A stretch of 64,000 bases of DNA from a virus, in IMG/VR virus record IMGVR_UViG_3300017598_000441, positions 1-64,000 of that record; one strand, given 5' to 3'. The notes under the pieces are model-generated. The model did not search any database, was not told the DNA's origin, and saw nothing but the letters and a program-made list of their open reading frames with translations. Below are positions 17,203 to 59,963 of the stretch, piece after piece; positions within the stretch are counted from its first letter, which is position 1; every line of letters begins with the position of its first letter. A program made the translations under genes and the position numbers.

Positions 17203-19854
17203 ATGAGTCAATTCGGTTCATTTTCTGGAGGAGGTTTAGGAATGGGTGTTGCGTTTAAATTGCAAGACCAATTTACTGCTACGTCTAGGAAAATCCAGAC
17301 CGAGATGGGTATGCTATCTAAACAGACAGATAAAATATCCTCAAAAATAGCTTCAAGTAAAAAACTTATGATGGCAGGGGGTTCTGCTATGGCTGCTGGA
17401 CTCGTGCTTGCAGCCCCCTTCATCATAGGTGTTAAAAAGAGTGCGGAGTTTAATGCGGCGATGTCTGATGTATTCGCAAAATCCAGAACAGAGGATGCAA
17501 AACTACAAGCTGCATTAAAATCCTCTGCAATACAACTAGGTACAGCCACTAAGTTTACAGCCACCGAGGCCGCTAAAGGTATGGGATTCCTAGCTATGGC
17601 AGGATTTAATGCTAGACAACAAATAGAGGCAATGCCAGGCCTTCTTAGTTTGGCAGCCGCAGGAAATACAGACTTAGCCACAACCGCAGATATTGTATCA
17701 GATTCCATGACAGCTATGGGATTAAAAGCTACAGATGTACAGATGATGGCTGATAACATGGCGGCTACAGTAACACGTTCCAACACCGATATTATACAAA
17801 TGGGGGAGGCAATGAAATATGCTTCCGCTTCTGCAAAAACTGCAGGTATTGACTTTGCTCAGTTCCAAGGAATGATAGGAATGGTGGGGGATATTGGTAT
17901 CAAAGGCTCTATGGCAGGTACAGGTCTGGCACAAATGATTGCTAAGATGGGTGAAATGGTTACTAAATCTGAGAAACTAGATGTATTGAAGAGTATAGGT
18001 ATAGAGAAAAACCAACTCTTAGATGCTAAAGGTAACTTCAAGGATATTACAGAAACTATACCCCTACTTGCAAAACATATCAAAGCCATAGGTGATGGAA
18101 CCCTTACTGAGGTAATAGGAAAGGATAAGATGGGCAAGGAGATAAAAGGTAATGCTGAACAGTTAATGATTGCCAGTAAACTATTTGGTATCCGTGGAGG
18201 AAAAGCCTTTGCCGCATTTACAACCGAAGCAGGAAAAGATTTTAAGAAATTTGTAAAAACAATAAGAGAGGATACAGGGGCTGCAGATAAGATTGCCAAC
18301 AAAATGCTAGATAATCTTGCAGGAGACTTCACAAAACTATCTAGTATAATAGATACTACTTTCATAAATCTGGGAGATTCTATAGAAAATTCTTTAAGAC
18401 CTGTAACGAAGATTATTACCAATATGGTAGCAGGTTTCAATAAATTTATTCAAACAAAGGCAGGCAAATTTATCTTAAAAGTTACCGCAGCTTTATCAGC
18501 TTTACTTATAGTGGGTGGAGGTATAACTCTACTTATAGGAGCAATGAAGTTTGCGTTCTTTTCCCTAGCACCTGCAATTTGGGCTGCAGTAGCACCTATC
18601 CTACCCTTTGTTGCATTAATTGCAGCTATTGCAGCAGGATTTTGGCTCATGTACGAAGCAGTACAATCTGGAAGTAAGGCTATGGCAATATTTGGTACAA
18701 TACTGATAACGGCTGTCTTAGGACCTATAGGGGGAGCTTTGGTGGTGGTTTTTGGAATGTTTATGAAACTCCGAAAATCCATAGGTGAGTTTAACAGAAA
18801 GACAGTAGATGAACTGGGCAAGAAAGGTGGGATAGCAGGCTTTTTTGAGAAGCTTGCAGGATTAGCTGTAGGTTTCAAGGCTGTAATATCTAGTATCTTT
18901 GGTTCCGATGGTAAAATGAAATTATCCATAGAATTAGAGAATAAGCTAGAAAAACTAGGTTTACTAGATACCGTGAAAAACTTTGGTACTTGGGTCATCC
19001 GAATAAAGGAGTTAATGAAAGGGGTGAAAGAAGTTTTTGTGGCTACATGGAAATCCGTTAGAAAAACAATATCAAGCACTGCTAAATGGTTGGCATCAAA
19101 GTTCAAGAGTATGGGCGGACCTTTTAAAAAATGGGGCTTACTCATATCGAAAAATACTTCTAAACTAGAGGACTGGAAGAAGATGGGTAAATTGTTAGGA
19201 AAAACAATGGTATTCATTTTAGGTGGGATAGCAGCTGCGTTTGTGGCGGTAGGAATAGTTGTAGCCGCAATCGTTGCTCCTATAGTGTTAGCTATGGTAG
19301 CCATAGGAGCAGCGATATATGCAAGCTACAAAATAGCCAAAGTAGTAGCTGATGGTATTGTGTTTGCTTGGAGAGCAGTAATATCTATATTTAACTCATT
19401 ATACAGAAATATTTCCGAAGGGTTTGTAGAGGCATTTAGTTTTATACTAAATGTACATGAAAAGGCTTTTGATGCGGGGGTTAGTTTTGTTACTAATTTA
19501 TGGGCAGGAATAAAAAGTATGTGGGGGCAGTTTACAGGGTGGCTAAGTGATAGTTGGGGAAGTATAGTGAATGGATTAGGTCTAGGAGGTGTATTTGGCA
19601 CAGAAGAATCTGCACCAGAGATTAATGATGGAAGCAGTACAAACGACATAATCAAACCTTTTACTACCCCAGACAGAAATGACACGTTAGCACAGCAGAA
19701 CGCCAACAGATTTATTGTACCTTCTCCTACCGTGCTGAATAATAATACCAATTCGGAGAAGTTAATACAGCCTATAATAACCTTGGACGGAGAGCAGATA
19801 GGAGCACACATGAATGGGAGAAATGCAATAGAAAACAGTAGAAACTCATATTAG
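17203..19854 (+). CDS. tape measure protein (TP901-type core)
   Basis: TKFTATEAAKGMGFLAMAG, GIKGSMAGT, MLDNLAGD and hydrophobic segments. Confidence 0.92.
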   Translation: MSQFGSFSGGGLGMGVAFKLQDQFTATSRKIQTEMGMLSKQTDKISSKIASSKKLMMAGGSAMAAGLVLAAPFIIGVKKSAEFNAAMSDVFAKSRTEDAKLQAALKSSAIQLGTATKFTATEAAKGMGFLAMAGFNARQQIEAMPGLLSLAAAGNTDLATTADIVSDSMTAMGLKATDVQMMADNMAATVTRSNTDIIQMGEAMKYASASAKTAGIDFAQFQGMIGMVGDIGIKGSMAGTGLAQMIAKMGEMVTKSEKLDVLKSIGIEKNQLLDAKGNFKDITETIPLLAKHIKAIGDGTLTEVIGKDKMGKEIKGNAEQLMIASKLFGIRGGKAFAAFTTEAGKDFKKFVKTIREDTGAADKIANKMLDNLAGDFTKLSSIIDTTFINLGDSIENSLRPVTKIITNMVAGFNKFIQTKAGKFILKVTAALSALLIVGGGITLLIGAMKFAFFSLAPAIWAAVAPILPFVALIAAIAAGFWLMYEAVQSGSKAMAIFGTILITAVLGPIGGALVVVFGMFMKLRKSIGEFNRKTVDELGKKGGIAGFFEKLAGLAVGFKAVISSIFGSDGKMKLSIELENKLEKLGLLDTVKNFGTWVIRIKELMKGVKEVFVATWKSVRKTISSTAKWLASKFKSMGGPFKKWGLLISKNTSKLEDWKKMGKLLGKTMVFILGGIAAAFVAVGIVVAAIVAPIVLAMVAIGAAIYASYKIAKVVADGIVFAWRAVISIFNSLYRNISEGFVEAFSFILNVHEKAFDAGVSFVTNLWAGIKSMWGQFTGWLSDSWGSIVNGLGLGGVFGTEESAPEINDGSSTNDIIKPFTTPDRNDTLAQQNANRFIVPSPTVLNNNTNSEKLIQPIITLDGEQIGAHMNGRNAIENSRNSY

Positions 19855-19855
19855 T

Positions 19856-20506
19856 ATGCCAGATATATACAACGCTTTAGTGACAGCAATTACCAATAAG
19901 ATTCACAGTAAGAATCTGGAAGATACATCTGGGTACACTAATGAGGTGCAGACTGCAGGGAATATGATTTATATAATAATTCATAGCCCAGACAAGTACG
20001 ACACTATAAACTTTCAATTCATACCTAACGAGCTGATGTATGACAGGAAAGTGAATGTACAACCTGTTAGTCCAGTATCCAGAAATTTACCCTACTATCA
20101 CTATGCAGGAGGGGAAACTACTATGAAACTTAGACTTGATATTGTGGCAGAGCAGGAGAATAGAGCTGATGTCATAAATAAAGTAAGGAGAGTGGAGGCA
20201 CTAGGATATTCAGATGGGTATGAGAAAAAGAAGCCTAGGGTATCTATAGTTTGGGGTAGTATGTTCCGAGGGGAATTGTGGGAAGTAGGCAACGTAAAAA
20301 TAAAGTTACAGGATTTCAAACCTAGTTATGGATATTTGCCTCAGCAAGCTTATGTAGACATAGACTTAATGTTAGTATCCGATAAGAATCTGAGATGGTC
20401 AGATATTACTGAGGAGATAATAAGCCCAGTTGTTACAGGTACAGATTTCCCAGACTCTACACAGAAAACTAAATCAATAAACGATGGAACAGATTCCGAG
20501 AAATAA
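19856..20506 (+). CDS. tail tube initiator / baseplate protein
   Basis: FQFIPNEL...RNLPYYHYAGGE motif; follows the tape measure gene. Confidence 0.65.
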   Translation: MPDIYNALVTAITNKIHSKNLEDTSGYTNEVQTAGNMIYIIIHSPDKYDTINFQFIPNELMYDRKVNVQPVSPVSRNLPYYHYAGGETTMKLRLDIVAEQENRADVINKVRRVEALGYSDGYEKKKPRVSIVWGSMFRGELWEVGNVKIKLQDFKPSYGYLPQQAYVDIDLMLVSDKNLRWSDITEEIISPVVTGTDFPDSTQKTKSINDGTDSEK

Positions 20507-20801
20507 TCTATACGGAAACGGTAGAATAATTCAATTCAATGATGGAGAACAGATTATAATAAGAGATTTGATAACCTCAGATAAATTTGAAGATTTTGAA
20601 TACCATACCGTAATGCAGAATGACGAGATAACAAATATTGCATACAAGTACTATAAAGGAGTTGCGAATGATGCCTCAAAGTACTGGTGGGTAATAGCAG
20701 ATGTAAATAATATCATGCGGCCACATGATATTTCGGACCTATTAGGGCAGGACTTAATAATACCTAATCTTAGACAATTAAATAACGCAAGGAGAAGTTG
20801 A
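20484..20801 (+). CDS. LysM/tail-X-like baseplate protein
   Basis: YHTV...IAYKYY...WWVIADVNNI...LIIP. Confidence 0.8.
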   Translation: MEQIPRNNLYGNGRIIQFNDGEQIIIRDLITSDKFEDFEYHTVMQNDEITNIAYKYYKGVANDASKYWWVIADVNNIMRPHDISDLLGQDLIIPNLRQLNNARRS

Positions 20802-22135
20802 AAACACCACTAATAAATATAAGCATAGAAGGGGAGACTATACAGGATGTACTAACATTTAGGTATGAAGATAGTATAACTCTGGACAATATGCTAGAAT
20901 TTGTTATACATGGTAGAGAAGAGCTGATAGACAAAATAAACGCCAAAGACTTTGCCTCTGGAAAAACAATAGTATTCTCATTCGGTTATGCAGAGGGTCA
21001 AATGTCTGTAAACCATACAGCGATACTTGTAGATACCGATGTAACCTATGAGAAAGGAGGTTTTATAAAACTAAAAGTAAGAGGTTTAGATATTGGCACA
21101 GTATTAAAAAAATCCGAAAGTATAAAAGATTGGTCTGGTAACACCACAGAACAGATAGTAAAAACAATAGCTGAGAAGTATGCTATGGACTATGAAATAG
21201 AAGATACTTCAAAAGTACATGAAAATCTACATCAACACGGCAGAAGTGATTTTGAGTTTATAGCATACCTAGCTTATATTGAAGGAGGTTATATTTTCTA
21301 CGTTAGGGGAGAGACTATGTACCTAGTCCAAAGAGGGTTAGACAAAAAAAGTAGAATAAATTATATGTACGGATTAGATGATACTGTACTGAGTTTTTCT
21401 ACAAGCCATAGGGACATAGCAAACAGTTCGGAGAGTTCAGAAATATCTGTAACTACAGTAGAGGATGACAAAGTAACTACCGAAGATGGAATAACCAGAG
21501 AAAAAATATCAGATAAAGATATAAACTTAGGTAATTTTGAATTAGAATATCTTTCTGGCAAGTTCGATTCAAACATAAACAGAAATATAGTATTACCTAC
21601 TTTTGAGACAATAGAAGTAACCAATATTACAGAAAGTCTTATGAAAGAGACTAAACTAATGGTATTGACAGGTATTATTACTGTAGAGGGAGACCCTTGG
21701 ATGATTCCAGATGAGGTTATGACTTTAGGGGGTAATGTGCTAGAGAGAGATAAAGGAAACTGGTATGTAGAAAAGGTTTCGCACTCAATCTCAAATGGTT
21801 ATATAACTACTATGCACATTGCAAAAAATGCAACCGATGAGCCAAACGCTAAAAAAAGTATTAATGTAAATACTTCAAATAAGGAAGTCAAAAAGGTAGA
21901 TATAAAAATTTCCGAAAAACCAATAGCTAAAGATTACATAACCATAAGGGTTTACGATGCTGATGGTAAATTAATAGGATATGAAACGGACCAAGGCAAA
22001 TACATAGATGCCAAAGACCAAACACAAGTAAAAAGATATACGAAGAAACCTGTTAAAACTTCTACCAGTAACGTGAAGAAACAGATAAATACAGGACCTA
22101 ATGTATATGATACATCAAACAACCTAATAAAATAA
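20798..22135 (+). CDS. baseplate hub protein (gpD/gp27-like)
   Basis: Q..RSDFEFI, GDP and GNWYVEKVSHSI motifs; TTG start. Confidence 0.75.
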   Translation: MKTPLINISIEGETIQDVLTFRYEDSITLDNMLEFVIHGREELIDKINAKDFASGKTIVFSFGYAEGQMSVNHTAILVDTDVTYEKGGFIKLKVRGLDIGTVLKKSESIKDWSGNTTEQIVKTIAEKYAMDYEIEDTSKVHENLHQHGRSDFEFIAYLAYIEGGYIFYVRGETMYLVQRGLDKKSRINYMYGLDDTVLSFSTSHRDIANSSESSEISVTTVEDDKVTTEDGITREKISDKDINLGNFELEYLSGKFDSNINRNIVLPTFETIEVTNITESLMKETKLMVLTGIITVEGDPWMIPDEVMTLGGNVLERDKGNWYVEKVSHSISNGYITTMHIAKNATDEPNAKKSINVNTSNKEVKKVDIKISEKPIAKDYITIRVYDADGKLIGYETDQGKYIDAKDQTQVKRYTKKPVKTSTSNVKKQINTGPNVYDTSNNLIK

Positions 22136-22137
22136 AC

Positions 22138-22863
22138 ATGGATTTTGTAGTATTTATAAAAAGGTTTAAGCTTATGGGTTTGGAGTATTTTAAAAGATAT
22201 TACTCAATCTATAAGGCAGAAGTATCCAGTAATGAAGACCCTAAAGGGTTAGGTAGATTACAGCTTGTAATACCCCAAATATACGGTAAAGATGTTTCTT
22301 ATAAGTATTGGGCAAAACCTAGAGGTTTGTACTCTGGCAAAAACAAAGGGAGTTTTATTATACCAGATAAAGGAGATAATATTTGGGTAGAGTTTGAAGG
22401 AGGAGACCCGAAGTACCCAGTCTGGAGCTATGGATTCTGGTCTGATGGGGAAGTTCCTGAGGGAGCAACGGTAGGAAACAAAACTATCCAAACTGGTACT
22501 GGGCATAAGATAGAACTAGATGATGATAAAGGATTAATCAGAATAACTGTAGCGGAGAAAGAGTTTAGTGTAACAATATCTGAGAGTGGTATAAGCATAG
22601 TTGCAGATAATATATCTGTAGGAACTTTGGATGAGTCCTCAGAACCTGCAGTTTTAGGGGACACTTTAAAATCAAAGTTGGACAGTATCTCAGATGAAGT
22701 TGGGAAAATAGCACAAAACACGTCAGTATTGACAGTAGGGACGGCTTTTGGACCGAGTACCCCACCAGTTAATGCAAGTGTATTTACTGCTATAAAAACA
22801 GCTATAGATTCACTAAAAACAACACTAAAGGAAATATTAAGTAAAAAAGTAACTTTAGACTAA
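22138..22863 (+). CDS. baseplate spike protein (gpV / gp5 OB-fold)
   Basis: DPKGLGRL, PDKGDNIWVEFEGGDPKYP and GHKIELDD. Confidence 0.88.
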   Translation: MDFVVFIKRFKLMGLEYFKRYYSIYKAEVSSNEDPKGLGRLQLVIPQIYGKDVSYKYWAKPRGLYSGKNKGSFIIPDKGDNIWVEFEGGDPKYPVWSYGFWSDGEVPEGATVGNKTIQTGTGHKIELDDDKGLIRITVAEKEFSVTISESGISIVADNISVGTLDESSEPAVLGDTLKSKLDSISDEVGKIAQNTSVLTVGTAFGPSTPPVNASVFTAIKTAIDSLKTTLKEILSKKVTLD

Positions 22864-23333
22864 TGCCATTACTAACTGATATACTAAGCACAAACTTACA
22901 GAAACTTTTAAATCAAGAGTATCCCAGTTTTGAGGGATTTCCAGATAATATGGGTGGTGTTGTTGAAAGTTGGGCAAACGCCATAAATGACTATGCTAAA
23001 TCTGTTGTACCTACGAGCACAACCTCAGAACAAGCTAAAGAAGCATTTAAGAGTACTATGCTAGGAATGAGTTCTGAGTTAGGAAATGGGGCGGTCATAC
23101 TCCCTTTAGCATTTACGAATTATGCGACTGCTTTAGCCTTAGGTATGGCAGGAGCAGGATTTATTGGAACACCTCCAGTAGCACCAATAAATCTAGCACC
23201 AATAATTGCTGCAGGTTTAGGGGGAGCTTCTGGGGAGATAATTGCGAATAGTTTTACAGTAGTTGTAGATATTTGGTTTAGAACAGGTACTGCCACACCT
23301 ACAGCAGGAGGCTCACCTATAATTTGGACGTGA
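22863..23333 (+). CDS. hypothetical baseplate-region protein
   Basis: Translationally coupled to the spike gene. Confidence 0.6.
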   Translation: MPLLTDILSTNLQKLLNQEYPSFEGFPDNMGGVVESWANAINDYAKSVVPTSTTSEQAKEAFKSTMLGMSSELGNGAVILPLAFTNYATALALGMAGAGFIGTPPVAPINLAPIIAAGLGGASGEIIANSFTVVVDIWFRTGTATPTAGGSPIIWT

Positions 23334-23725
23334 TGAATGAAGTAAAAAAATATAGTAAAACAGGAGTGGCTATAAAATACCCAATAACTTTGGAGGAGGG
23401 AAAGGTAGCCTTAGTAACTGGGTCAGACTTAATTATACAATCTGCATTTGATATTTTATCTGCGGATGCTCCAAGATTTTTCTTAGGGGAATATAATTCG
23501 AGATTAAAAGAGCTAAAGTTTGAACAAAATGACGAAGTTTTATTATCTTTGCTACAAGTATTTATATACAATGCTTTAAAAAAATGGGAGACCCGAACTA
23601 AAGTAAAGAATATAAATTTTAACGTGGAGGAGGATTGGGTAGATTGCGAAATAACTCACCAGATAATAGGAGAGAGTACAACAGAAAGTTTTGTATATCC
23701 TTTTTACAAAAATATAATATACTAA
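23333..23725 (+). CDS. baseplate wedge / sheath initiator (gp25/gpW-like)
   Basis: RFFLGEYNSRLKELKFEQND, KWETR and FVYPFY; ATG overlaps the upstream TGA. Confidence 0.8.
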   Translation: MNEVKKYSKTGVAIKYPITLEEGKVALVTGSDLIIQSAFDILSADAPRFFLGEYNSRLKELKFEQNDEVLLSLLQVFIYNALKKWETRTKVKNINFNVEEDWVDCEITHQIIGESTTESFVYPFYKNIIY

Positions 23726-23726
23726 G

Positions 23727-25397
23727 ATGGTAGAGCAAAAAAATACATGGGTAAAGTATGTTGAAAGAACATACCAACAAATAAAAGATAGTGTTTTGGT
23801 ACGCCTACAAAGTCTTACCCCAGAAATAACAGACCATACAGAAAGTAATATTTTTGTTAAGATGTTAGGTATATGGGCAGGTATTGCAGAGATGTTGGGA
23901 TATTATATAGACAATGTTGCTAGAGAGAGTTATATCTCTACTTGCAGATTATACTGGTCTGCAGTAAAAATAGCACAACAGTTCGACTATAGGATATTCT
24001 CAAAATCCCCCGCTTCTGCAGATGTTACGTTTACCATAAATACAGTAAGCCTAACAGATATTACTATTCCACAAAATACAGAATTAAAATCTAAGGGGGA
24101 TTTAAAATTCCTAACAGTAGAGCCTGCAACTATAAATGTAGGTCAGTTAGAAGCAACAGTATCTGCACTACAGTTCGATAAAGTTATTGGGGCAACCTTA
24201 GGTATATCCAACGGTTCAGATGCCCAAGTATTTGTAGTAAATGACCAAGACATTGCAGATAAAAGTGCAGTAGTAAAGATACTAGGTAGTAACTGGGCTC
24301 ATGTAGACACTTTTGCATTTAGCCTCGCAGACGATTTGCATTTTAGGATGTCCGTTAATATAGACAAACAGACAATAATAGAATTTGGAGATGGCATAAA
24401 CGGAGCTATACCTCAAAACGGAGCAACAATAACTTTGGATTACCTAACCTGTGCAGGTGCAGCAGGAAATATTGCAGCCGACCAAATTGCAGAAATAGTA
24501 GATACTATTACCCTACCCCCTAGTACAGAAATAGAAGTTACAAATAATTTAGCATCTTCTGGAGGGGTTGATATTGAGAGTTTAGATGACTTGAAACGTA
24601 GAATACCCTTATCCATAAGAACTGTAAGGGTGGCAGTAACTGAGAAAAACTTCTTAGATATTGCGAACCAAGCACCCCAAGTACAGCAGTCTGCATTGTC
24701 TTATGATTGTGGTAAGAATGTAAAAATATATGTAGTACCTATAGGTGGAGGCATTGCCAGTGAGGTATTATGTGATTCTGTAGTATTGTGGTTTGAGGAT
24801 AAGAAATTATTTTCTACAAAGGTGTTTGTATTTCCTGCAGGTATGTTAGAAGTATCCCTAAACCTAAACGTACAGGCTAGGTATAACTATCAAAACATAG
24901 ATGTTCAGACTAGGGTGGTAGAAAACCTAGAGGAGAGGTTTTCAATGGTATCACAGGGAATCGGAGGAAAATTAAAATTATCCGATATATACGAAGTTGT
25001 AGAAAATACAGATGGGGTAGAATATAGTAATGTTAGACAAATAAAGTTAATACCTTATGCAAGGTCTATAGATAACTTTATTCAACTAGATTGGACTAAA
25101 ACGCTAAAAGATACAGGCAATGTATCACTGTTTTGGAAAATAACAATGATAAACCCTACTCAGTATCAATTATTCAAAGGGAGTACTTTCCAAGGGACTT
25201 ATGACGTAGGTACTTTAGCAACTTTTGTGGAGATAGATTTTGTAGTAAATCTAGGGGCGTATAATACTGGGGATGAGTGGGAATTTGTAACTTACCCAAG
25301 TTTCCAAAGCAATAACGGAATAATAGAGTTGGAAGAGTTTTCCGTACCTGTTATTCTACAGAATAACACGGTAATAAATGTAACTGGAGGTATATAG
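23727..25397 (+). CDS. baseplate wedge protein J-like
   Basis: FGDGING..P, GAAGN, GGVDIESLDDLK and RVAVT motifs. Confidence 0.88.
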   Translation: MVEQKNTWVKYVERTYQQIKDSVLVRLQSLTPEITDHTESNIFVKMLGIWAGIAEMLGYYIDNVARESYISTCRLYWSAVKIAQQFDYRIFSKSPASADVTFTINTVSLTDITIPQNTELKSKGDLKFLTVEPATINVGQLEATVSALQFDKVIGATLGISNGSDAQVFVVNDQDIADKSAVVKILGSNWAHVDTFAFSLADDLHFRMSVNIDKQTIIEFGDGINGAIPQNGATITLDYLTCAGAAGNIAADQIAEIVDTITLPPSTEIEVTNNLASSGGVDIESLDDLKRRIPLSIRTVRVAVTEKNFLDIANQAPQVQQSALSYDCGKNVKIYVVPIGGGIASEVLCDSVVLWFEDKKLFSTKVFVFPAGMLEVSLNLNVQARYNYQNIDVQTRVVENLEERFSMVSQGIGGKLKLSDIYEVVENTDGVEYSNVRQIKLIPYARSIDNFIQLDWTKTLKDTGNVSLFWKITMINPTQYQLFKGSTFQGTYDVGTLATFVEIDFVVNLGAYNTGDEWEFVTYPSFQSNNGIIELEEFSVPVILQNNTVINVTGGI

Positions 25398-26522
25398 ATG
25401 GGTTGGTTCAAAGACAATATTTTTAGTAAGTATTTTGGTAGGTATTATAAACTTACCGACAGTTATAAAAATTTGTCGGGGGAAGGTTTATTAGAACGGT
25501 ACAACCAGATAATAGGGGAGGACATAGATGAGGAGTTAGTACTTCTGTTGGAGAATATTACAGATAACACTAAAACTCCGAATACTATGTTTACTCAGTA
25601 TTTTAATATAGCTGAGGATTCCTTAGGTCTGGATTTATATGTGCATACAAACTCGGACTGGACAAAAAGGAAACTTATAGAAAGAGCTGTAAAATACTAT
25701 TCTATAAGAGGCTCAAAAAAAGGATATGAATACCTTTTTAAGATTATGGGTTTCACATTCATAGATTTGGTAATATACAACTCAGATGGATTTGATACTG
25801 GTATTTTTGACGATGGTAATTTCGATGGAAGAAACGGATGCTGTATATATTACAATGTGATATTAGAAGGTCCGACTGATTTTGAGGATATGACCAACAG
25901 CGAAAAGTTGGCAATATTAAAAATCATAGATTTTAACGAACCTATAAACGCTACGTTAGGAGTTATAACAGTAAACGGAGAGGAGGCTATATTTGAGAAA
26001 GCAGAATTTATCTGCAAAGGAGGAACAAGCCAACACCAAAAACAAGGGGAGCAGTTAGATGTATCAATTAACGTATCCAACGTAGGTAATATAGGAGCTT
26101 GGTGTGAAATTGAAATAGATTTCGGGGAGGTACTAATTAACGGAGATAGTCCACTCAATCCAGAATATAGATACTCTACAGAAGATGGGGTATATGAACA
26201 TTATAATTTAAGCGAATTTACAATGATAGCACTTGCAGAAAACGATGTAACCTCAGTAGTAATAGGGTTAGTAGAAGTAAACCAAAATACGTTGGTAGAT
26301 TACGGGATAATAAAAGATGGTAAAATCGTACAGGCAGGAATAATAAGAATGCTTTGCGATGGGGCTAAGATAGAAATAGGAGACCGTTCTGAAATGTTCG
26401 ATTCGGAATCCGTACTAGATGGTACGTTAGACTTTTCTGCAAAAATAACTGGGGGGAATGCAGTACTTGATATTACCGTAGGAAACTTTACAGGATATGA
26501 ATTAATTTATAGATATATATAA
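25398..26522 (+). CDS. baseplate wedge / tail protein I-like with C-terminal extension
   Basis: RKLIERAVKYYSIRGSKKG motif; follows gpJ. Confidence 0.7.
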   Translation: MGWFKDNIFSKYFGRYYKLTDSYKNLSGEGLLERYNQIIGEDIDEELVLLLENITDNTKTPNTMFTQYFNIAEDSLGLDLYVHTNSDWTKRKLIERAVKYYSIRGSKKGYEYLFKIMGFTFIDLVIYNSDGFDTGIFDDGNFDGRNGCCIYYNVILEGPTDFEDMTNSEKLAILKIIDFNEPINATLGVITVNGEEAIFEKAEFICKGGTSQHQKQGEQLDVSINVSNVGNIGAWCEIEIDFGEVLINGDSPLNPEYRYSTEDGVYEHYNLSEFTMIALAENDVTSVVIGLVEVNQNTLVDYGIIKDGKIVQAGIIRMLCDGAKIEIGDRSEMFDSESVLDGTLDFSAKITGGNAVLDITVGNFTGYELIYRYI

Positions 26523-27046
26523 TGAAAGGGATTTATAGAATACTCGAAGCAATATCTGGGCTGCTAATACTAGGCTCAGAGAAAAATAGGATACAGTCCA
26601 CCTCTGGAAAACTTGCCATTAAAAATGAATCTGGACAACTTATTAAAATGCAGGTTGCAGATGGTACTGAACCAAATGAAGCAACCTCGGTAAGCCAAGT
26701 ACAAACTATGGTTGCGGGAGGTTCAAATGCAAAACGGAGTAGTTTTATACATATAGACTTTAATGAGGCTGTAACGGTTATACCTGTTCCAGAGAATGCA
26801 ATAATAACTCAGATAAGGTTTATTGTAGATAATGCTTGGGTAGGAGGCATAGAGAATATAGAAATAATTAAATCTGGGGGAGCAGTAATAGTAACTGGAA
26901 ATGAATTTGATAAATCCACAAATTCTATTACCTTTGTAGAGGTATTTGTAGAGATGGGCTCAGATACAGAGGTAGAGGTAGAAATTCCATCTGGGATTAC
27001 TTCTGGCTCGGGGAAATTAGAAATAACTTATTATGTAAACCTTTAA
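26522..27046 (+). CDS. virion structural protein
   Basis: N-terminal ~60 aa paralogous to 12879..15554; beta-sandwich-like C-terminus. Confidence 0.6.
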   Translation: MKGIYRILEAISGLLILGSEKNRIQSTSGKLAIKNESGQLIKMQVADGTEPNEATSVSQVQTMVAGGSNAKRSSFIHIDFNEAVTVIPVPENAIITQIRFIVDNAWVGGIENIEIIKSGGAVIVTGNEFDKSTNSITFVEVFVEMGSDTEVEVEIPSGITSGSGKLEITYYVNL

Positions 27047-27048
27047 GT

Positions 27049-27306
27049 ATGCCAACTCCTTTAATGACCATATTGCAAACAAATACTTTACAGTCTAGGA
27101 AGATAACTGTAAGGGTATTTGTAGAGGCTCAGACAGATGCAAATATATGGGTATCAAAGAAAATACCTATAGATGCACCCTTGGGTCCAAAATCCATACA
27201 GATAAAAAGCTGTTGTGGAGAATCTACTATGGACTATGAGATAATAGGAACAGAGGGACTTAATGTAGGATACTCTACAGGATTTTCTACAGGATTTAAT
27301 TCGTAA
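27049..27306 (+). CDS. small hypothetical virion protein
   Basis: 85 aa ending in GYSTGFSTGF; lies within the fibre module. Confidence 0.6.
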   Translation: MPTPLMTILQTNTLQSRKITVRVFVEAQTDANIWVSKKIPIDAPLGPKSIQIKSCCGESTMDYEIIGTEGLNVGYSTGFSTGFNS

Positions 27307-27309
27307 GAT

Positions 27310-28653
27310 ATGAAGACAATAGAAGAATTATTAGTTCAAAATACTGAACTTATAGCAGACAATAATAACAGGGAGATAACTGAGAAGGTGTTGAGAGACC
27401 ACTTAGCAGATATTATTGAATCCTCGGTTAATACGATAGCAGACGATATTGTCATTATAAAAAAGTTCACTTTAAGTAGCAATTCTGATTTAGGAATACT
27501 AGCATCGGAGATAAATGTAAAATTTTATGACTATGGAAAAGCATCTGTAGATAGTGATGGAGACCCAAATACCTACAATTATGATTATGTAAGTTTTAGA
27601 ATAAAACAAGGAGGTGAAATAGTACATGATGGAGTACTGACAAACCCACCAGACAACCATAGTAGACTAAGAGCTTTTATAGAGGATTCTAGTGGATTTG
27701 GTTCTGACGAATCCGAAATAGTGGTATATATAAACAGGGTTTTACCTCCCATAGATAGAATGGATGGTAGGAATTTTGGCTTTCAAGAATTGAGAGGGGG
27801 AAGATTGGCATATAGAAATAGCAAAAACAAAACTTTGTGGCTTGCATCTGGAGATGATTTTGAAATGATGTTAGAAGATGTTTGGCAAGTTTTAGCTCCA
27901 CAGATAGCTTTAACCCCACCTAGTACAGCAGACATGAATGCCGTATGGATGTCGGGAGTAAGTGCATCTATGTACGTGGCAATAGGCAGAAGTGATAGTA
28001 GGACACCTTTTGGTGGAGGTTCTGCAGAGGCGTATGGACGTAAGGTATATAACCAAACGACTACAGCTTATGAAAATATAGGACCTAACCCTACAAATAA
28101 TTTTGCAAATATACATTCCAAAGTAGGGCAAATATATGTAGAGTATAGAGATAACGGAAGCTATAATATAAAAGATAATGTCTTCAAAAGGGAAGAAATG
28201 CTACAAGAGCAGAGTTATGTTCAATTCTCGCTGTACAGGCTTGAAAAAGTAGTAGGACCATCCCAGTACGAATATTGCTACTATATCCTATTAAAACCTA
28301 TAGGATTAGATATTTTTGATTTATCTTATTTTGATGTACTGGAGAATAAGCTATATGCGTATTTAGACGATGGATATTCCACACCTATAATAAGAAAAGT
28401 AACCGCAGAGGATATTACTTCTGAAATAAATAATAGAAGTTACCGAGTTAAGAAGAACGAAATACTTAGGTCAAATATGATGCTAAACTCAGCTACTTCT
28501 GGAAAATCTTTAAATGAGAGAGGTTACAAAAGCATACAATTTTTCTATACTGATACAAAAGGGAAATCTTCTGGATTTTCTCCTACTATAGAAGTAGTAA
28601 ATAATAAAAGAGGATATACGACAGGATTACTTATCTCGAATAAATCCAGATAA
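27310..28653 (+). CDS. putative virion / receptor-binding-region protein
   Basis: N-terminal LIADNNNREITEKVLRD segment of the kind seen in phage virion proteins; lies within the fibre module. Confidence 0.55.
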   Translation: MKTIEELLVQNTELIADNNNREITEKVLRDHLADIIESSVNTIADDIVIIKKFTLSSNSDLGILASEINVKFYDYGKASVDSDGDPNTYNYDYVSFRIKQGGEIVHDGVLTNPPDNHSRLRAFIEDSSGFGSDESEIVVYINRVLPPIDRMDGRNFGFQELRGGRLAYRNSKNKTLWLASGDDFEMMLEDVWQVLAPQIALTPPSTADMNAVWMSGVSASMYVAIGRSDSRTPFGGGSAEAYGRKVYNQTTTAYENIGPNPTNNFANIHSKVGQIYVEYRDNGSYNIKDNVFKREEMLQEQSYVQFSLYRLEKVVGPSQYEYCYYILLKPIGLDIFDLSYFDVLENKLYAYLDDGYSTPIIRKVTAEDITSEINNRSYRVKKNEILRSNMMLNSATSGKSLNERGYKSIQFFYTDTKGKSSGFSPTIEVVNNKRGYTTGLLISNKSR

Positions 28654-28684
28654 AATAACGGCAGATTTATCTGCTATGAAAATC

Positions 28685-28770
28685 AATTCAAGAAACCTGT
28701 ATGTCGATACGATAATTCGACAAATCTGTATGTTGATACGACAATTCAACAAACCTGTTTCTTGATATAT
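28685..28770 (+). ncRNA. candidate structured RNA: 3 x 29-nt repeat forming a symmetric three-way junction
   Basis: Units start at 28685, 28714 and 28743; three 9-position helices joined by CT linkers with compensatory substitutions; flanking hairpins at 28660-28675 and ~28775-28808. Strand assumed from the operon. Confidence 0.65.
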
Positions 28771-28842
28771 AAGGGAATAAGAACTATAGGTTTAATATAG
28801 TTCTATTCTCAAAAATTCTATTAAAGCAGAAAACTTAACATT

Positions 28843-30255
28843 ATGCAAGAAAGGATACACGAATATAAGCAGGAAGATTCTACATTCTCCTTGAACAGAA
28901 AATATTTAGGGATATTGGATGCAGGTGTGTACAGAGGGTTTGATGCAATACTAGGAGACAATATGATACTTACACTTACCCACACTATGACAGGGGTTAA
29001 GCAGTATGACTTGGATTTGTCCCCAAAAGATGTAGGGGTAATCATAACCAAACAGGGGAATGTAATAAGGGAAGATGAAGATATTACACTCAATATAAAT
29101 GTAGGACCTTCTGGGTCTTATGAATCTAGGATTGACCTAATAGTAGTAGAACACAGATTTGTAGAAACTACAGGGGGTACGCAAGCATTATACTCAGTAA
29201 TAGAGGGAGTCCCAGACCAACAACCTGTAGTACCAAATCTTTTGAATGAGGCCACTCAAGTCCCTATAGCTACCATGCAGGTTTATGAAAACTCACAGGA
29301 GCTTAATGGAACTAGAAATTTCTTTAAAAAATTTCCACCCCCAAATTATTCGGGAACTTCTGATGCTTTATTAAAATCAGAAAATCTAAACGATGTAGTA
29401 GATAAACAAACTGCACGTGATAATTTACAATTAAGGCGAGGGGTTGAGATAACTTCTGAAATAGAGGATGCGGTAAATGTGGTGGCTTCTGCAATCATAG
29501 GAGGTGCAAACACTAACTTCAATACTTTAGGTAAACTAGAGGCTATACTACAAGGGGACCCAAACATAATACAGAATATTACATCTGCTTTGAGTGGTAA
29601 AGTAGATAAAATTTCGGGTAAAGGGTTATCCCAAGAGGATTTTACAGCTACTTTACTAGGCAAACTGAATAGTATAAATCTAGGGGCAGCAGTAGGAAAT
29701 GTGCCTGCTATAGGAGAGGCACTAGGGGCTAATAAGATAGTGGAGACGAATGGCTCTGGGGAACTAAAATCTGTATCAAAAGGCTCTGCACATAATAAAT
29801 CTTGGGCAGGAACAGGTGGTCACTATGGAACTTCTGGCAGTCCAGCAAGAAGCAATCACTACCACACCAGTTATGCAGCCATAGAGACAAAAGATATAAA
29901 AACAGGTACAGCTGCATTTACAGATAATACTAGTGGAGATATAGGGATAGACCCCACTTCATATACAAGGATATTAAAAACTGCAGATAAAATACTTATA
30001 GAGTTTTGTCTGAAAGTTACCCCCCTGTCTGGCTCAGTTCCAGAATTAGAGGTAGGGTTCGATGATGTATCAGTATTTCCAGTAGTTACTGGAGTATATA
30101 TTCCTTTTGTAGTTAGGCGAAGTGGTTCACCAGAACCTTGCTACTATAGACCTGTAGCATCCACCCCCACACGAGGTTTCTTTAGTATGATGTCTGGGAC
30201 ATTTAACTGGAATATTCAATATATTATTTCGGGAAGTTACACAAGAATATTATGA
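28843..30255 (+). CDS. tail fibre protein
   Basis: RIDLIV N-terminal anchor; NLNDVVDKQTARDNL, NTLGKL and KVDKISGKGLS fibre segments. Confidence 0.8.
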   Translation: MQERIHEYKQEDSTFSLNRKYLGILDAGVYRGFDAILGDNMILTLTHTMTGVKQYDLDLSPKDVGVIITKQGNVIREDEDITLNINVGPSGSYESRIDLIVVEHRFVETTGGTQALYSVIEGVPDQQPVVPNLLNEATQVPIATMQVYENSQELNGTRNFFKKFPPPNYSGTSDALLKSENLNDVVDKQTARDNLQLRRGVEITSEIEDAVNVVASAIIGGANTNFNTLGKLEAILQGDPNIIQNITSALSGKVDKISGKGLSQEDFTATLLGKLNSINLGAAVGNVPAIGEALGANKIVETNGSGELKSVSKGSAHNKSWAGTGGHYGTSGSPARSNHYHTSYAAIETKDIKTGTAAFTDNTSGDIGIDPTSYTRILKTADKILIEFCLKVTPLSGSVPELEVGFDDVSVFPVVTGVYIPFVVRRSGSPEPCYYRPVASTPTRGFFSMMSGTFNWNIQYIISGSYTRIL

Positions 30256-30908
30256 TACTAACAAAGGTAAGAGACTATCTAGACAAAGGATTGATAATTT
30301 CTGCACTAATACAATTCAGATGTATATATCCAAACATCGTAGAGGGATTAGAAATAATCACAAAATACAGAAGTTTGGAATCTACTTATCTTTTAGGGAA
30401 TATCTCAGAGCAAGAATATACAACAGGCAGAAACAAATTAGTTTCTGCTTTTTTAAATTTAATTAACACACTAGAGGAAAACCCTCCAGAAAAACCTATT
30501 ATTATGAAATTCGAGATTGAAAAACAAGTAGTAAATGGACAGGTAAATATTGCAGATACTATCAATATAGGTACGAAATTTGCAGAGACTTTCACATCAA
30601 AAAAAGAGTACAGCCCAGAAGATACAGATTTACTAAAAGTGGTTGGGGAAGTAGGGGATGAGGAGGATAAAAAAGACGTACCTACGGCTGTAGATGAATT
30701 TAATGAGGATGAGGAAAAGAAAGAAAGTGCGAAAGAAAGAATTACCAACTTCATAAAAACATACGGCACACCTATTTTTAAAATATTGGGAAAAGTGGCA
30801 TTAGGGTTACTGTTAGCTAAATATGGACTTAGTGCAAAAGATTTGTCCTTAGACAGCACTCAGAAAAAACCAGAAATAGAAGATTCAGAAATAGACGAAA
30901 AAAACTAA
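30252..30908 (+). CDS. protein with N-terminal EAD11 (effector-associated domain 11) and C-terminal amphipathic helix
   Basis: VRDYLDKG..ISAL...KYRSLESTYLLGNISEQEYTTGRNKLVSAFLNLINTL matches the EAD11 pattern as I recall it. Confidence 0.7.
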   Translation: MILTKVRDYLDKGLIISALIQFRCIYPNIVEGLEIITKYRSLESTYLLGNISEQEYTTGRNKLVSAFLNLINTLEENPPEKPIIMKFEIEKQVVNGQVNIADTINIGTKFAETFTSKKEYSPEDTDLLKVVGEVGDEEDKKDVPTAVDEFNEDEEKKESAKERITNFIKTYGTPIFKILGKVALGLLLAKYGLSAKDLSLDSTQKKPEIEDSEIDEKN

Positions 30909-30911
30909 ACC

Positions 30912-31826
30912 GTGGCAGTATCACATACTATTTTCACCGCTATTTTCATAGCCATTTTTACGATTCTTATAATAATGTACCTACTAGCTAGTAAAGCAAT
31001 AAGTAGGATAATGAAAATAGTGGCTGAAATAAAAACAGATGAAAGGAATAACCATAAGATACTGAGAGACTTGTCGGTACAAGTAACCCAATTAGGTAAC
31101 TCTTTTATAGAACTGGAGTCTAATGTGGATGTAAAATCTGGCTCGGATTTAGAATACCATACAGATATGGAATTAGTAAAACTTACCGTGCTAACTCCGT
31201 TCAATGATTTAAAATTATACCTAAACCGAAAACGTACCATATTAGTAGAGGAGGCTAAGAGGATGGCAAATATTGGAATTAAAAATTCTGATTTTACAAA
31301 TATTGAGGATAAGTGGGAGAGTATGAGATACGAGCTCAAAGATTTTTCAGATGGGTTATCGGAGGATTTCAAAAACTATAATGCAACTAAACCATCAAAC
31401 GAGCATTGGAAACTAGATGACTTTCTAAATGACTTATCCCACGCACTTAAATACGGAAATGGGAGCAGAGATATAATTTTCTTAAACCAGATGAAGGTTT
31501 ATATAAAAACTCAGTTAGAATACACGTTTAAAGATTATACTAGGTTCAAGGTGGAATCTTTAGGGGTGGATTCTTTAGATGTAAGTAAAACCTACCTAAT
31601 AAAATTACTGGAGGAGGATAATATAGAGATGGTATTATTCCAACTTCGTAACCAAACCCAAAGTAATACAGAGTTAAGCAGCAGGCTATCTCTTATACAG
31701 GCTCAGTACAACAGGCAGATAAAAGACAAGAACTCTGGCACATTCTCGGAGGAGGCTTTAAGAATATCCTGTAACAAAGTTAGGGCTGCAGTATTAGATT
31801 TTATAAAGGTAGTAGATATACATTAA
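30912..31826 (+). CDS. membrane-anchored protein with C-terminal EAD11 domain
   Basis: N-terminal TM helix, coiled coil, then LSLIQAQYNRQIKDKNSGTFSEEALRISCNKVRAAVLDFI. Confidence 0.7.
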   Translation: MAVSHTIFTAIFIAIFTILIIMYLLASKAISRIMKIVAEIKTDERNNHKILRDLSVQVTQLGNSFIELESNVDVKSGSDLEYHTDMELVKLTVLTPFNDLKLYLNRKRTILVEEAKRMANIGIKNSDFTNIEDKWESMRYELKDFSDGLSEDFKNYNATKPSNEHWKLDDFLNDLSHALKYGNGSRDIIFLNQMKVYIKTQLEYTFKDYTRFKVESLGVDSLDVSKTYLIKLLEEDNIEMVLFQLRNQTQSNTELSSRLSLIQAQYNRQIKDKNSGTFSEEALRISCNKVRAAVLDFIKVVDIH

Positions 31827-31859
31827 TTTTGGTTTATATCAAAAAATATTGTATCTTTG
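31827..31859 (+). promoter_or_regulatory. promoter of the replication module
   Basis: TTTTGG 31827 and TATCTTTG 31852-31859. Confidence 0.7.
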
Positions 31860-31881
31860 TAGAATAATTAAAACACACACA

Positions 31882-43534: not shown

Positions 43535-44887
43535 ATGAGAAAATTAGATTTAGGAGCGAACGAAAAGAACGCAGAAAAGTTAGGAGGGTTCGGAGGTTCC
43601 GAAGTATTCTACTTAGGGAAAGAAATGGATGATGAAATATACATCCGAGTAATCTACCCTCTGGAAAATCAAAATGGTATGGTAAGTTTCCAAGCGGCAA
43701 AATGGTGGTTAGGTAGTAAACCTATCATGTCCCCAGAAAACAAAGTGGATGGCTTTGATGTAGTGGAAGATGAGTTAGACCTTATCAAACAAGAGTACGA
43801 GGATGATACTAGAATGCTGAAAAGCATAAATAAAAAAACCTCAAACAACAAAGATTTTAAAAAGTCTTACGAACAATTATTTCTGGGAGTACCTTTTGAT
43901 TTTGATTTCAACGATGAGTTAGAAATCAAAGACATCTGGATTAGTGACCTTACCCGAGAGGAGGCATACGAGGCTCGCATGGAGGTTAAAAAAGGGAAAT
44001 ACAAAAATGCAGCAGAAGCTATAGATGCAATGTGGGGCATAAAAGTTTCCGAGGATGAGAACATAGGAACGGAAGAACCTATTGATTTTGATAAACTTAA
44101 AAAAGCCATGATAGGAGATGGAGAAATCAAAATCATAAGTACTGGGGTACAGGCTATGAAAGAAGTGATTTCTACCTTTTCAAAAAAGGCAGCTTTAAAG
44201 CACTCAGTAAAATGTGACCTACTCACTTTGGATAATGTACGAGGGGTAAACACTATGGTATTCAAAAAAGGAAAAGGGTTGAACACCAAATACAGTTCAG
44301 ATGCAGATACGTTCCCTATGGAAATGCCAGATTTCTATGATAATGATAATAACAAGCCAGATATTATCAAATTCGTAGAAGCCCAAATCAAGCCAGAAGC
44401 ATGGATTAGAGCATACGTTAGATTCTATGTACTAGGAGAAGAGGAACCTGCAGATGATTATGGTCAAGATGGTGCAGAAACAAGCAACCGAAGACAACCG
44501 AAGACAACCGAAAGAAGAAGACGTAGAGATGACGATGACGAACCTACTGAAACCAGAAAACGTAAAGATACTAATTCTGAGCCTGTAGATACTGGGAGAA
44601 AACGTAAAGATACTAATTCTGAGCCTGTAGATACTGGGAGAAAACGTAGAGATACTAATTCTGAGCCTGTAGATACTGGGAGAAAACGTAGAGATGCCCC
44701 TAAAGAGGAGGAGAAACCTACTGGGAGAAAACGTAAAGATACCGAAGAGAAGCCTACCAATAGAAGAAAAGCAGAGTTCGAGCCGAATGAAGAAAACTTC
44801 GAGAAGGAGAAAAAGGAGAACCTATCTCTGGCAGATTCTATGGAGAAAATGGAGAAATCTGATGAGGAGGAGTTAGATAATTTATAA
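43535..44887 (+). CDS. putative single-stranded DNA-binding protein with repetitive charged tail
   Basis: Follows the polymerase; own promoter and terminator; GKGLNTKY motif; acidic C-terminus. Confidence 0.5.
   Translation: MRKLDLGANEKNAEKLGGFGGSEVFYLGKEMDDEIYIRVIYPLENQNGMVSFQAAKWWLGSKPIMSPENKVDGFDVVEDELDLIKQEYEDDTRMLKSINKKTSNNKDFKKSYEQLFLGVPFDFDFNDELEIKDIWISDLTREEAYEARMEVKKGKYKNAAEAIDAMWGIKVSEDENIGTEEPIDFDKLKKAMIGDGEIKIISTGVQAMKEVISTFSKKAALKHSVKCDLLTLDNVRGVNTMVFKKGKGLNTKYSSDADTFPMEMPDFYDNDNNKPDIIKFVEAQIKPEAWIRAYVRFYVLGEEEPADDYGQDGAETSNRRQPKTTERRRRRDDDDEPTETRKRKDTNSEPVDTGRKRKDTNSEPVDTGRKRRDTNSEPVDTGRKRRDAPKEEEKPTGRKRKDTEEKPTNRRKAEFEPNEENFEKEKKENLSLADSMEKMEKSDEEELDNL
44555..44695 (+). repeat. 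42-bp coding tandem repeat, ~3.3 copies
   Basis: AGAAAACGTARAGATACTAATTCTGAGCCTGTAGATACTGGG at 44555, 44597 and 44639. Confidence 0.95.
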
Positions 44888-57518: not shown

Positions 57519-57549
57519 CATCAAAGAAATATAAACAAAAACACACACA

Positions 57550-59729: not shown

Positions 59730-59927
59730 ATGTTAGAATTACTAGACAAAAAGTACGAGGGAGCAATTACATCAGAACCGACTACTCTTAGGGTAGATGG
59801 CAAAGCTACAAAACTGAAATTATTCATAGATACTTTGGAGAGTAGTGGAGTATCTGAAAAAACAGCAATAAACAGGTTCAGTAAATTCGTTAGAGACAAC
59901 GATATGATTGAACTAATTAATAATTAA
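59730..59927 (+). CDS. hypothetical protein
   Basis: 65-aa ORF after tandem promoters. Confidence 0.6.
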   Translation: MLELLDKKYEGAITSEPTTLRVDGKATKLKLFIDTLESSGVSEKTAINRFSKFVRDNDMIELINN

Positions 59928-59963
59928 CACACACAAACAACACACACAAACAAAACACACACA

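Follow-up and report, generated by a model that had tools for sequence, protein, structure and literature searches.

What does a phage keep in a 189-nt gap at the end of a tightly packed row of tail genes, and in which form, DNA or RNA, is it used? The window analysed here is the first 64 kb (64,000 nt) of a 73,679-bp IMG/VR phage record with a CheckV completeness of 100%; its source is an uncultured Bacteroidota-type phage, which carries almost all of its genes on the + strand. The gap, 28654-28842, is the second-largest in the genome and closes a row of tail and baseplate genes (17203-28653) that includes a baseplate wedge protein. The genes around it are as follows:

27049..27306, + strand: 85-aa gene upstream of the 447-aa gene, with a C-terminal GYSxGFSxGFNS motif common to the 92-aa gene of a relative
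27310..28653, + strand: 447-aa protein of the tail/baseplate module, fold unrecognised, co-inherited with the element in the gap
28843..30255, + strand: 470-aa gene downstream of the element, with weak tail-fibre PHROG matches, not homologous to the relative's downstream gene

Past the 470-aa gene there are two EAD11-domain genes and then a DnaB-like helicase. The EAD11 matches of the two genes (30252-31826) lie on both sides of the cut-off, one below it (E 2e-4) and one above it (E 8e-10).

The gap holds three tandem repeat units whose arms pair across unit borders, so that the whole is drawn as a three-way junction with a closing helix (H1) and two hairpins (H2 and H3). Its parts are:

28685..28771, + strand: three tandem 29-nt units from which the junction is built (TRF score 119, period 29, 2.9 copies)
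28688..28696, + strand: 5′ arm of the closing helix H1 (UCAAGAAAC), 9 of 9 pairs in both genomes, five double-change pairs
28757..28765, + strand: 3′ arm of H1 (GUUUCUUGA), pairing 9 of 9 with 28688-28696
28699..28725, + strand: hairpin H2, core stem 28702-28707 with 28717-28722, loop 28708-28716 (UACGAUAAU), two compensatory pairs
28722..28728, + strand: junction motif AAAYCUG between H2 and H3, identical columns in alignment A2
28728..28754, + strand: hairpin H3, core stem 28731-28736 with 28746-28751, loop 28737-28745 (UACGACAAU), one compensatory pair
28660..28675, + strand: upstream flanking hairpin A, 6 nt past the stop codon, absent from the relative
28773..28810, + strand: downstream flanking hairpin B, 15 pairs, without a U-tract, absent from the relative

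The units span 28685-28713, 28714-28742 and 28743-28771, the second and third being 83% and 72% identical to the first. Taken at full length, the stem of H2 (28699-28707 with 28717-28725) forms eight of nine pairs, one of them G.U, with one A.A mismatch, and that of H3 (28728-28736 with 28746-28754) likewise forms eight of nine with one A.A mismatch. The two 9-nt loops read TACGATAAT and TACGACAAT, all three linkers are CT, and AAAYCUG also stands directly after the 5′ arm of H1 and the 3′ arm of H3. All of this agrees with the initial annotation, whose statements on units, pairing, mismatches, loops and linkers hold throughout, and the flanking hairpins that it listed are present. The 3′ arm of hairpin A (UUUAUCUG) can alternatively pair with CAGAUAAA across the stop codon (28647-28675), and a weaker long-range pairing of 28667-28675 with 28825-28833 would enclose the junction and hairpin B; neither is kept in the relative.

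Folded as RNA, the element has the three-way junction as its minimum-energy structure (−20.6 kcal/mol, z −2.7), a value equalled by none of 200 shuffles, and the whole 206-nt stretch is unusually structured (z −4.3). The three-way topology satisfies 25 of 27 pairs against 22 when the arms are paired inside their own unit, which bears out the earlier observation that arms match better across units than within them; with six random substitutions placed on consensus arms, at least 25 pairs would be reached with P ~0.001. A 20-nt motif of the element has no other occurrence in the 73.7-kb genome.

A second sequence was found next to a homologue of the 447-aa gene. This protein family is rare, with five close members, P0002, P0003 and P0005 (= MCF6184354.1) among them; a profile search against 1.8 billion representatives gave 73 clusters, ~20 of them full length. 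The relative is a Bacteroidales MAG (G001) in which the homologous gene is split across two contigs; its product matches P0004 without a difference on the contig with the C-terminal part and at 99.5% identity on the one with the N-terminal part, while identity to the window's 447-aa protein is ~40%. The 111-nt gap behind the stop codon in contig L008 (864-866) is occupied by a homologous element, which starts about 6 nt after the stop codon as against 34 nt in the window phage. The comparison of the element thus covers two sequences, the window phage and L008.

Both genomes have the three-way junction as minimum-energy structure. In L008, H1 is UUGACAGCC with GGCUGUCAA, H2 is UACCGA with UCGGUA around the loop GACGGUUAAAAU, and H3 is UAUUGA with UCAAUA around the loop UACGGUUAAAAU; in place of CU, the junction strands read ACGAA, AACCUGC(U) and CCCC. 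Identity between the two elements is 58% (z 6.3, equalled by 0 of 5000 shuffles), the best-conserved adjoining coding stretch being at 64%, and the blocks common to both comprise the edges of the loops (GAKACG...AAUUC) and the junction motif AAAYCUG. Scored on the MAFFT alignment A2, all 21 core pairs of the junction are Watson–Crick in both sequences, and in eight of them, of which H1 has five, H2 two and H3 one, both partners changed. When the partner columns were slid by 1-3 positions as a control, 0-2 double-change pairs and 30-46% pairing were obtained, compared with 91% in register; the observed covariation values were reached by 3-4 of 500 shuffles, which for two independent sequences is a thin statistic. 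Compensated pairs are also found between H2 and H3 inside one genome, one in the window phage and two in L008. The lower pairs of H2 (28699-28701 with 28723-28725), which contain the G.U and the A.A, are not kept in the relative.

The initial annotation had proposed that selection acts on a single-stranded fold and had suggested a test for covariation downstream of homologues of 27310..28653. The one relative compared does show covariation, with all core pairs retained through the double compensatory changes, and selection on a single-stranded three-way-junction fold of the gene strand is supported by these sequences. We consider the fold itself probably real. Of the larger element that had been described, junction plus flanking hairpins, the junction is kept in the relative and the flanking hairpins are not conserved.

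Template switching is known to create apparent covariation, and when it occurs between inverted repeats in replication it can mimic compensatory change without any RNA selection; the element would then be a functionless tandem repeat kept complementary in this way, or else a decoy array mimicking a type III antitoxin RNA. The tandem layout of ToxI-type arrays, reportedly as described by Blower et al. in 2012, is like that of the 29-nt units with their 2.9 copies, and speaks for this explanation. Against it, the conservation of the element almost equals that of adjoining coding sequence, and we regard a neutral repeat or decoy as very improbable. A ToxI-like antitoxin or pseudo-ToxI was rejected as an identity, since the H1 arms of L008 are unlike the repeat unit and the pairing between units covaries. 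The neighbouring proteins of the element have no Pfam family, so no ToxN-like toxin is recognised next to it, and a true ToxI locus was rejected for want of an adjacent ToxN/CptN/TenpN-type endoribonuclease.

Which strand folds can be read from the wobble pairs. Four G.U pairs lie on the + strand (28699.28725 in the window phage, one in H3 of L008 and two in its extended H1) and no A.C mismatch occurs in paired positions of the two elements, which argues that the folded strand is the gene strand. The same fold could form in single-stranded DNA, extruded or exposed in replication, and serve there as a signal for priming, nicking or recombination. DNA tolerates G.T pairs, the three-way junction is again the best fold with DNA energy parameters (z −2.9 and −3.5), and the site is near the border between the structural and replication modules. 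Yet the element travels with a tail gene rather than with replication genes, the folding strand is the transcribed strand, and the phage is without reverse transcriptase, tyrosine recombinase or serine recombinase; a DNA signal of this kind seems improbable.

Still less probable, to the point of being hard to credit, are duplex DNA sites arrayed as iterons or operators, to which a dimeric regulator or initiator would bind. The tandem units with internal dyad symmetry would suit such an array, as would two identical 13-mers 32 bp apart in L008. The half-sites, however, have no single consensus: arms vary in pairs while centres stay fixed, both within and between genomes. The arm-CT-arm palindrome found within the unit is absent from L008, spacer and period both differ there (9 vs 12 bp and 29 vs 32 bp), and a change from 9 to 12 nt is tolerated by hairpin loops but not by a duplex DNA site for one dimer. 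We therefore rejected an iteron or operator array, which lacks both a consensus across half-sites and a fixed spacing. Binding as duplex DNA by a recombinase or repressor, named in the initial annotation as the contrary case, fares no better, with no recombinase match in the phage and with arms that covary and spacing that shifts in the relative.

The second genome also changes how the junction is to be understood. The initial annotation saw three equivalent arms suited to a homotrimer, and this is not supported by the comparison. The H1 arms in L008 are unrelated in sequence to the repeat unit and bear no loop, the linkers differ, and two arms only carry a conserved loop. Because L008 has no repeat unit in its H1, equivalence of the units does not hold, and two looped arms would suit a dimer or two monomers. 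L008 nevertheless keeps a decayed third unit after H1 (UUUGGUUUUAAU, to be compared with UACGGUUAAAAU), so the triplication origin seems common to both genomes. Most likely the structure arose by triplication of a unit consisting of arm, linker, arm and loop; a triplicate array of this composition can only fold as two hairpins and a closing helix. Selection now seems to maintain the closing stem and the twin hairpins, not three equivalent arms. The loops measure 9 nt in the window phage and 12 nt in L008 (repeat period 29 vs 32). Inside one genome they differ at one of nine or one of twelve positions, whereas between genomes a 3-nt insertion and substitutions set them apart. Loops that are alike within a genome and different between genomes suggest a partner that co-evolves with the phage, and not a conserved host factor.

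We then have to ask on which transcript the element lies. Two promoter types recur in the genome:

Window 462, 33743, 38739, 43470, 50684, 53880, 57487, 59566 and 59652, and genome 66010-73615: early-type promoter TTTGG-N(17-19)-TATCTTTAC, 18 copies in all
Window 1637, 4076, 5829, 16193 and 33352: late-type motif TACnTTTGTA, before structural genes

Copies of the early-type promoter in the small-gene region, at the genome's right end, are nearly identical. On the replication side, many start codons are immediately preceded by CA-repeat leaders (ACACACA; 59926-59963; leaders also at 57530, 50730 and 33790). The gap 28654-28842 has neither an early- nor a late-type promoter and all surrounding genes are on the + strand, so the element should lie inside a late transcript. 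Genes 28843-31826 have no promoter of their own and need read-through, and the late transcript probably reads on into them. The DnaB-like helicase has its own early-type promoter (31824-31860), and is probably transcribed apart from the tail genes; this promoter overlaps the mechanically called TTG start (31849), the true start of the helicase being probably further downstream. A moron-type promoter was rejected as an identity: TAnnTTTG is present at 26929 in the window phage and nowhere upstream in L007.

A structure at such a place may be a branched intrinsic terminator or attenuator, at which the late transcript stops or its continuation into the next gene is gated. L008 has a G+C-rich closing helix with a U-rich tail (UUUGGUUUUAAUUUU) behind it, and the extended 5′ arm of this helix overlaps the stop codon of the upstream gene, both in keeping with termination. 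In the window phage, by contrast, H1 is A+U-rich and followed by UAUAUAAGGG, and a terminator scan of the gap gave none on the + strand. The other terminators of the phage are canonical hairpins with a T-run, and the promoterless genes 28843-31826 need read-through. We consider a terminator or attenuator improbable.

It is also conceivable that the element is a passive 3′-end or processing structure of the mRNA, which stops exonucleases coming from the 3′ end or serves as substrate for a host double-strand RNase, so that the stability of upstream and downstream late genes differs without any dedicated phage protein. T7 RNase III sites and lambda sib are established precedents for such structures. 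The location would be fitting, at the end of the packed gene row 17203-28653 in the second-largest gap, promoter-free and with stable flanking hairpins. But the conservation of loops and junction at ~40% protein identity is left unexplained by a passive role, and the flanking hairpins are not conserved; this explanation is unlikely, with a real though small chance of being correct. If it holds and the element is merely an mRNA end structure, the finding is ordinary.

Downstream genes of the two genomes are unrelated, and the relative's genes further upstream, a baseplate hub and wedge genes, have no match in the window phage. The small upstream genes (85 aa vs 92 aa) share the GYSxGFSxGFNS tail (window 27268-27306, L007 2848-2886), their remainder having diverged. 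Since flanking genes differ except for this C-terminal motif, the element travels with the 447-aa gene; and since only the immediate upstream small gene matches, the inherited unit consists of the small gene, the 447-aa gene and the element.

When the two sequences were made into a covariance model, a search with it gave exactly one copy in the window phage and one in the relative. Two phages whose resemblance to the protein is limited to its N-terminal 40-50 residues, and which lack a gap at that place, gave no match. The viral contigs searched gave no further copies, only N-terminal look-alikes and five chance single-hairpin matches. Further copies were likewise absent from the INPHARED phage collection (blastn and tblastn), from 400 Bacteroidales genomes (protein profile) and from 25 family genomes (RNA model). 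A literature search on the element returned nothing relevant.

The co-inherited protein itself has no PHROGs or Pfam family and no recognisable RNA-binding domain. Its AlphaFold2 model is poor (pLDDT 52), scores in the ESM Atlas stay <0.85, and a profile search of the PDB gave nothing better than E = 0.5. The first ~45 residues (window 27310-27450; L004 3971-4110; L005 3995-4140) recur N-terminally in otherwise unrelated phage proteins of 106-615 aa; in this distribution they resemble a swappable anchor domain, such as tail fibres and receptor-binding proteins have.

We hypothesize that the element is a Y-shaped RNA of the sense strand, lying in an untranslated spacer directly 3′ of the 447-aa gene inside the late structural mRNA. 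Its closing helix, 9-11 bp long, would carry a pair of near-identical hairpins with 6-bp stems and 9-12-nt loops of the form (U/G)ACGR...AAU, and onto these twin loops a phage-specific protein may dock, either as a dimer or as two separate copies. The simplest assumption would be that this partner is encoded by one of the two co-inherited genes. Once bound, it would decide what becomes of the late mRNA, by protecting its 3′ end, by processing or by feedback, much as retroregulation does. It is unusual for a regulatory site to lie 3′ of its own gene, and the position after the stop codon makes control of mRNA fate likelier than classical operator repression; autoregulation through the element is possible. 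We hold this control of late mRNA fate by a twin-loop-binding protein tentatively, at somewhat less than even chances. A bolder alternative takes the Y-shaped RNA as a dedicated partner of the co-inherited tail-module proteins, which would help them to assemble, as scaffold or chaperone, or would even enter the baseplate or fibre complex in stoichiometric amounts, taken up in cis as the protein leaves the ribosome; in a variant it is a decoy against a host defence protein. If the RNA were indeed built into the baseplate or fibre complex, contractile-tail adsorption apparatuses would have their first RNA component, but we give this alternative little chance.

Known systems offer partial likenesses to the twin-loop element. 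The c4 antisense RNA of phages P1/P7 (RF01695) is also a small Y-shaped phage RNA with a closing stem and two recognition loops, and it is cut from a longer sense transcript; its loops, however, differ mutually and pair with mRNA of its own phage, whereas the loops of the element are near-identical, with no + strand complement of at least 8 nt and no Rfam match. The lambda sib retroregulator and the T7 intercistronic RNase III sites are likewise structures 3′ of a gene in a long phage transcript that set the stability of the upstream message, but they are single irregular hairpins for host RNase III, in contrast to a branched fold whose loops are conserved yet differ between phages. Coat-protein or RegA/gp32-type operator hairpins (MS2, PP7, T4) combine a loop and a covarying stem with a phage protein dimer, which for the element is predicted by the working model; they sit at the ribosome-binding site of the regulated gene, unlike an element that follows a stop codon and has a candidate partner only. 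phi29 pRNA is a phage-encoded three-way junction with two loops, but the loops of separate pRNA molecules complement each other in a ring on the portal, whereas those of the element are non-complementary, belong to a tail module and match no Rfam family. Three-way-junction aptamers of the purine-riboswitch type have a P1 stem, two hairpins of 6-7 bp and junction strands of 5, 8 and 5 nt; in the element, by contrast, the junction strands are least conserved (2/5, 5/8 and 2/5 identical), loop–loop pairing and an Rfam match are lacking, and the downstream genes are unrelated.

Membership in a known RNA family, which the initial annotation had left to an Rfam search, did not emerge: there was no match to any Rfam 15 family, the covariance models run over 28300-29200 giving a best E of 0.9 or worse. 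The sole Rfam match touching the element's stretch was RsaF, on the minus strand over hairpin B, at 17.7 bits against a cut-off of 60. The element is a candidate structured RNA, known from two sequences, outside all Rfam 15 families and all systems compared here.

Several further identities were tried and rejected. The hammerhead core (CUGANGA, GAAA, UH) is absent from the junction strands of both genomes, which are CU/CU/CU in the window phage (with mismatched pairs open, CUGUA, AAAUCUGUA and AAACCU) and ACGAA, AACCUGCU and CCCC in L008. A purine riboswitch was dismissed on account of the element's poorly conserved junction strands and missing Rfam match, and loop–loop pairing because only 2 bp are possible in the window phage. 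For a c4-type antisense or kissing target, the 9-nt loops have no + strand complement, two isolated 7-mers being all that was found. The complete genome has no RVT_1 match, which excludes an accessory structure of a diversity-generating retroelement (DGR), and the phage has no PF00239 or PF00589 match for an invertase, shufflon or integron-type site. Coding explanations failed in the relative: stop-codon read-through would have 48 open codons in the window phage and only 11 in L008, and a small ORF of 29 codons (28676-28765) is absent from L008.

To our knowledge, structured RNAs of phage late operons are barely charted, none being known to be co-inherited with a tail-module gene, and post-transcriptional control in Bacteroidota phages is almost unknown. 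The element is small (~80 nt), its closing stem and twin loops make a clear and testable design, and it illustrates how a functional junction may arise from a simple triplication. Should a phage protein bind it, the two would make a new compact RNA–protein pair, through which the control of late genes in Bacteroidota phages could be approached.

The genome also has a 42-nt tandem repeat at 44555-44695 (3.4 copies, 98% identical), located inside the coding region of a 450-aa gene (43535-44887).
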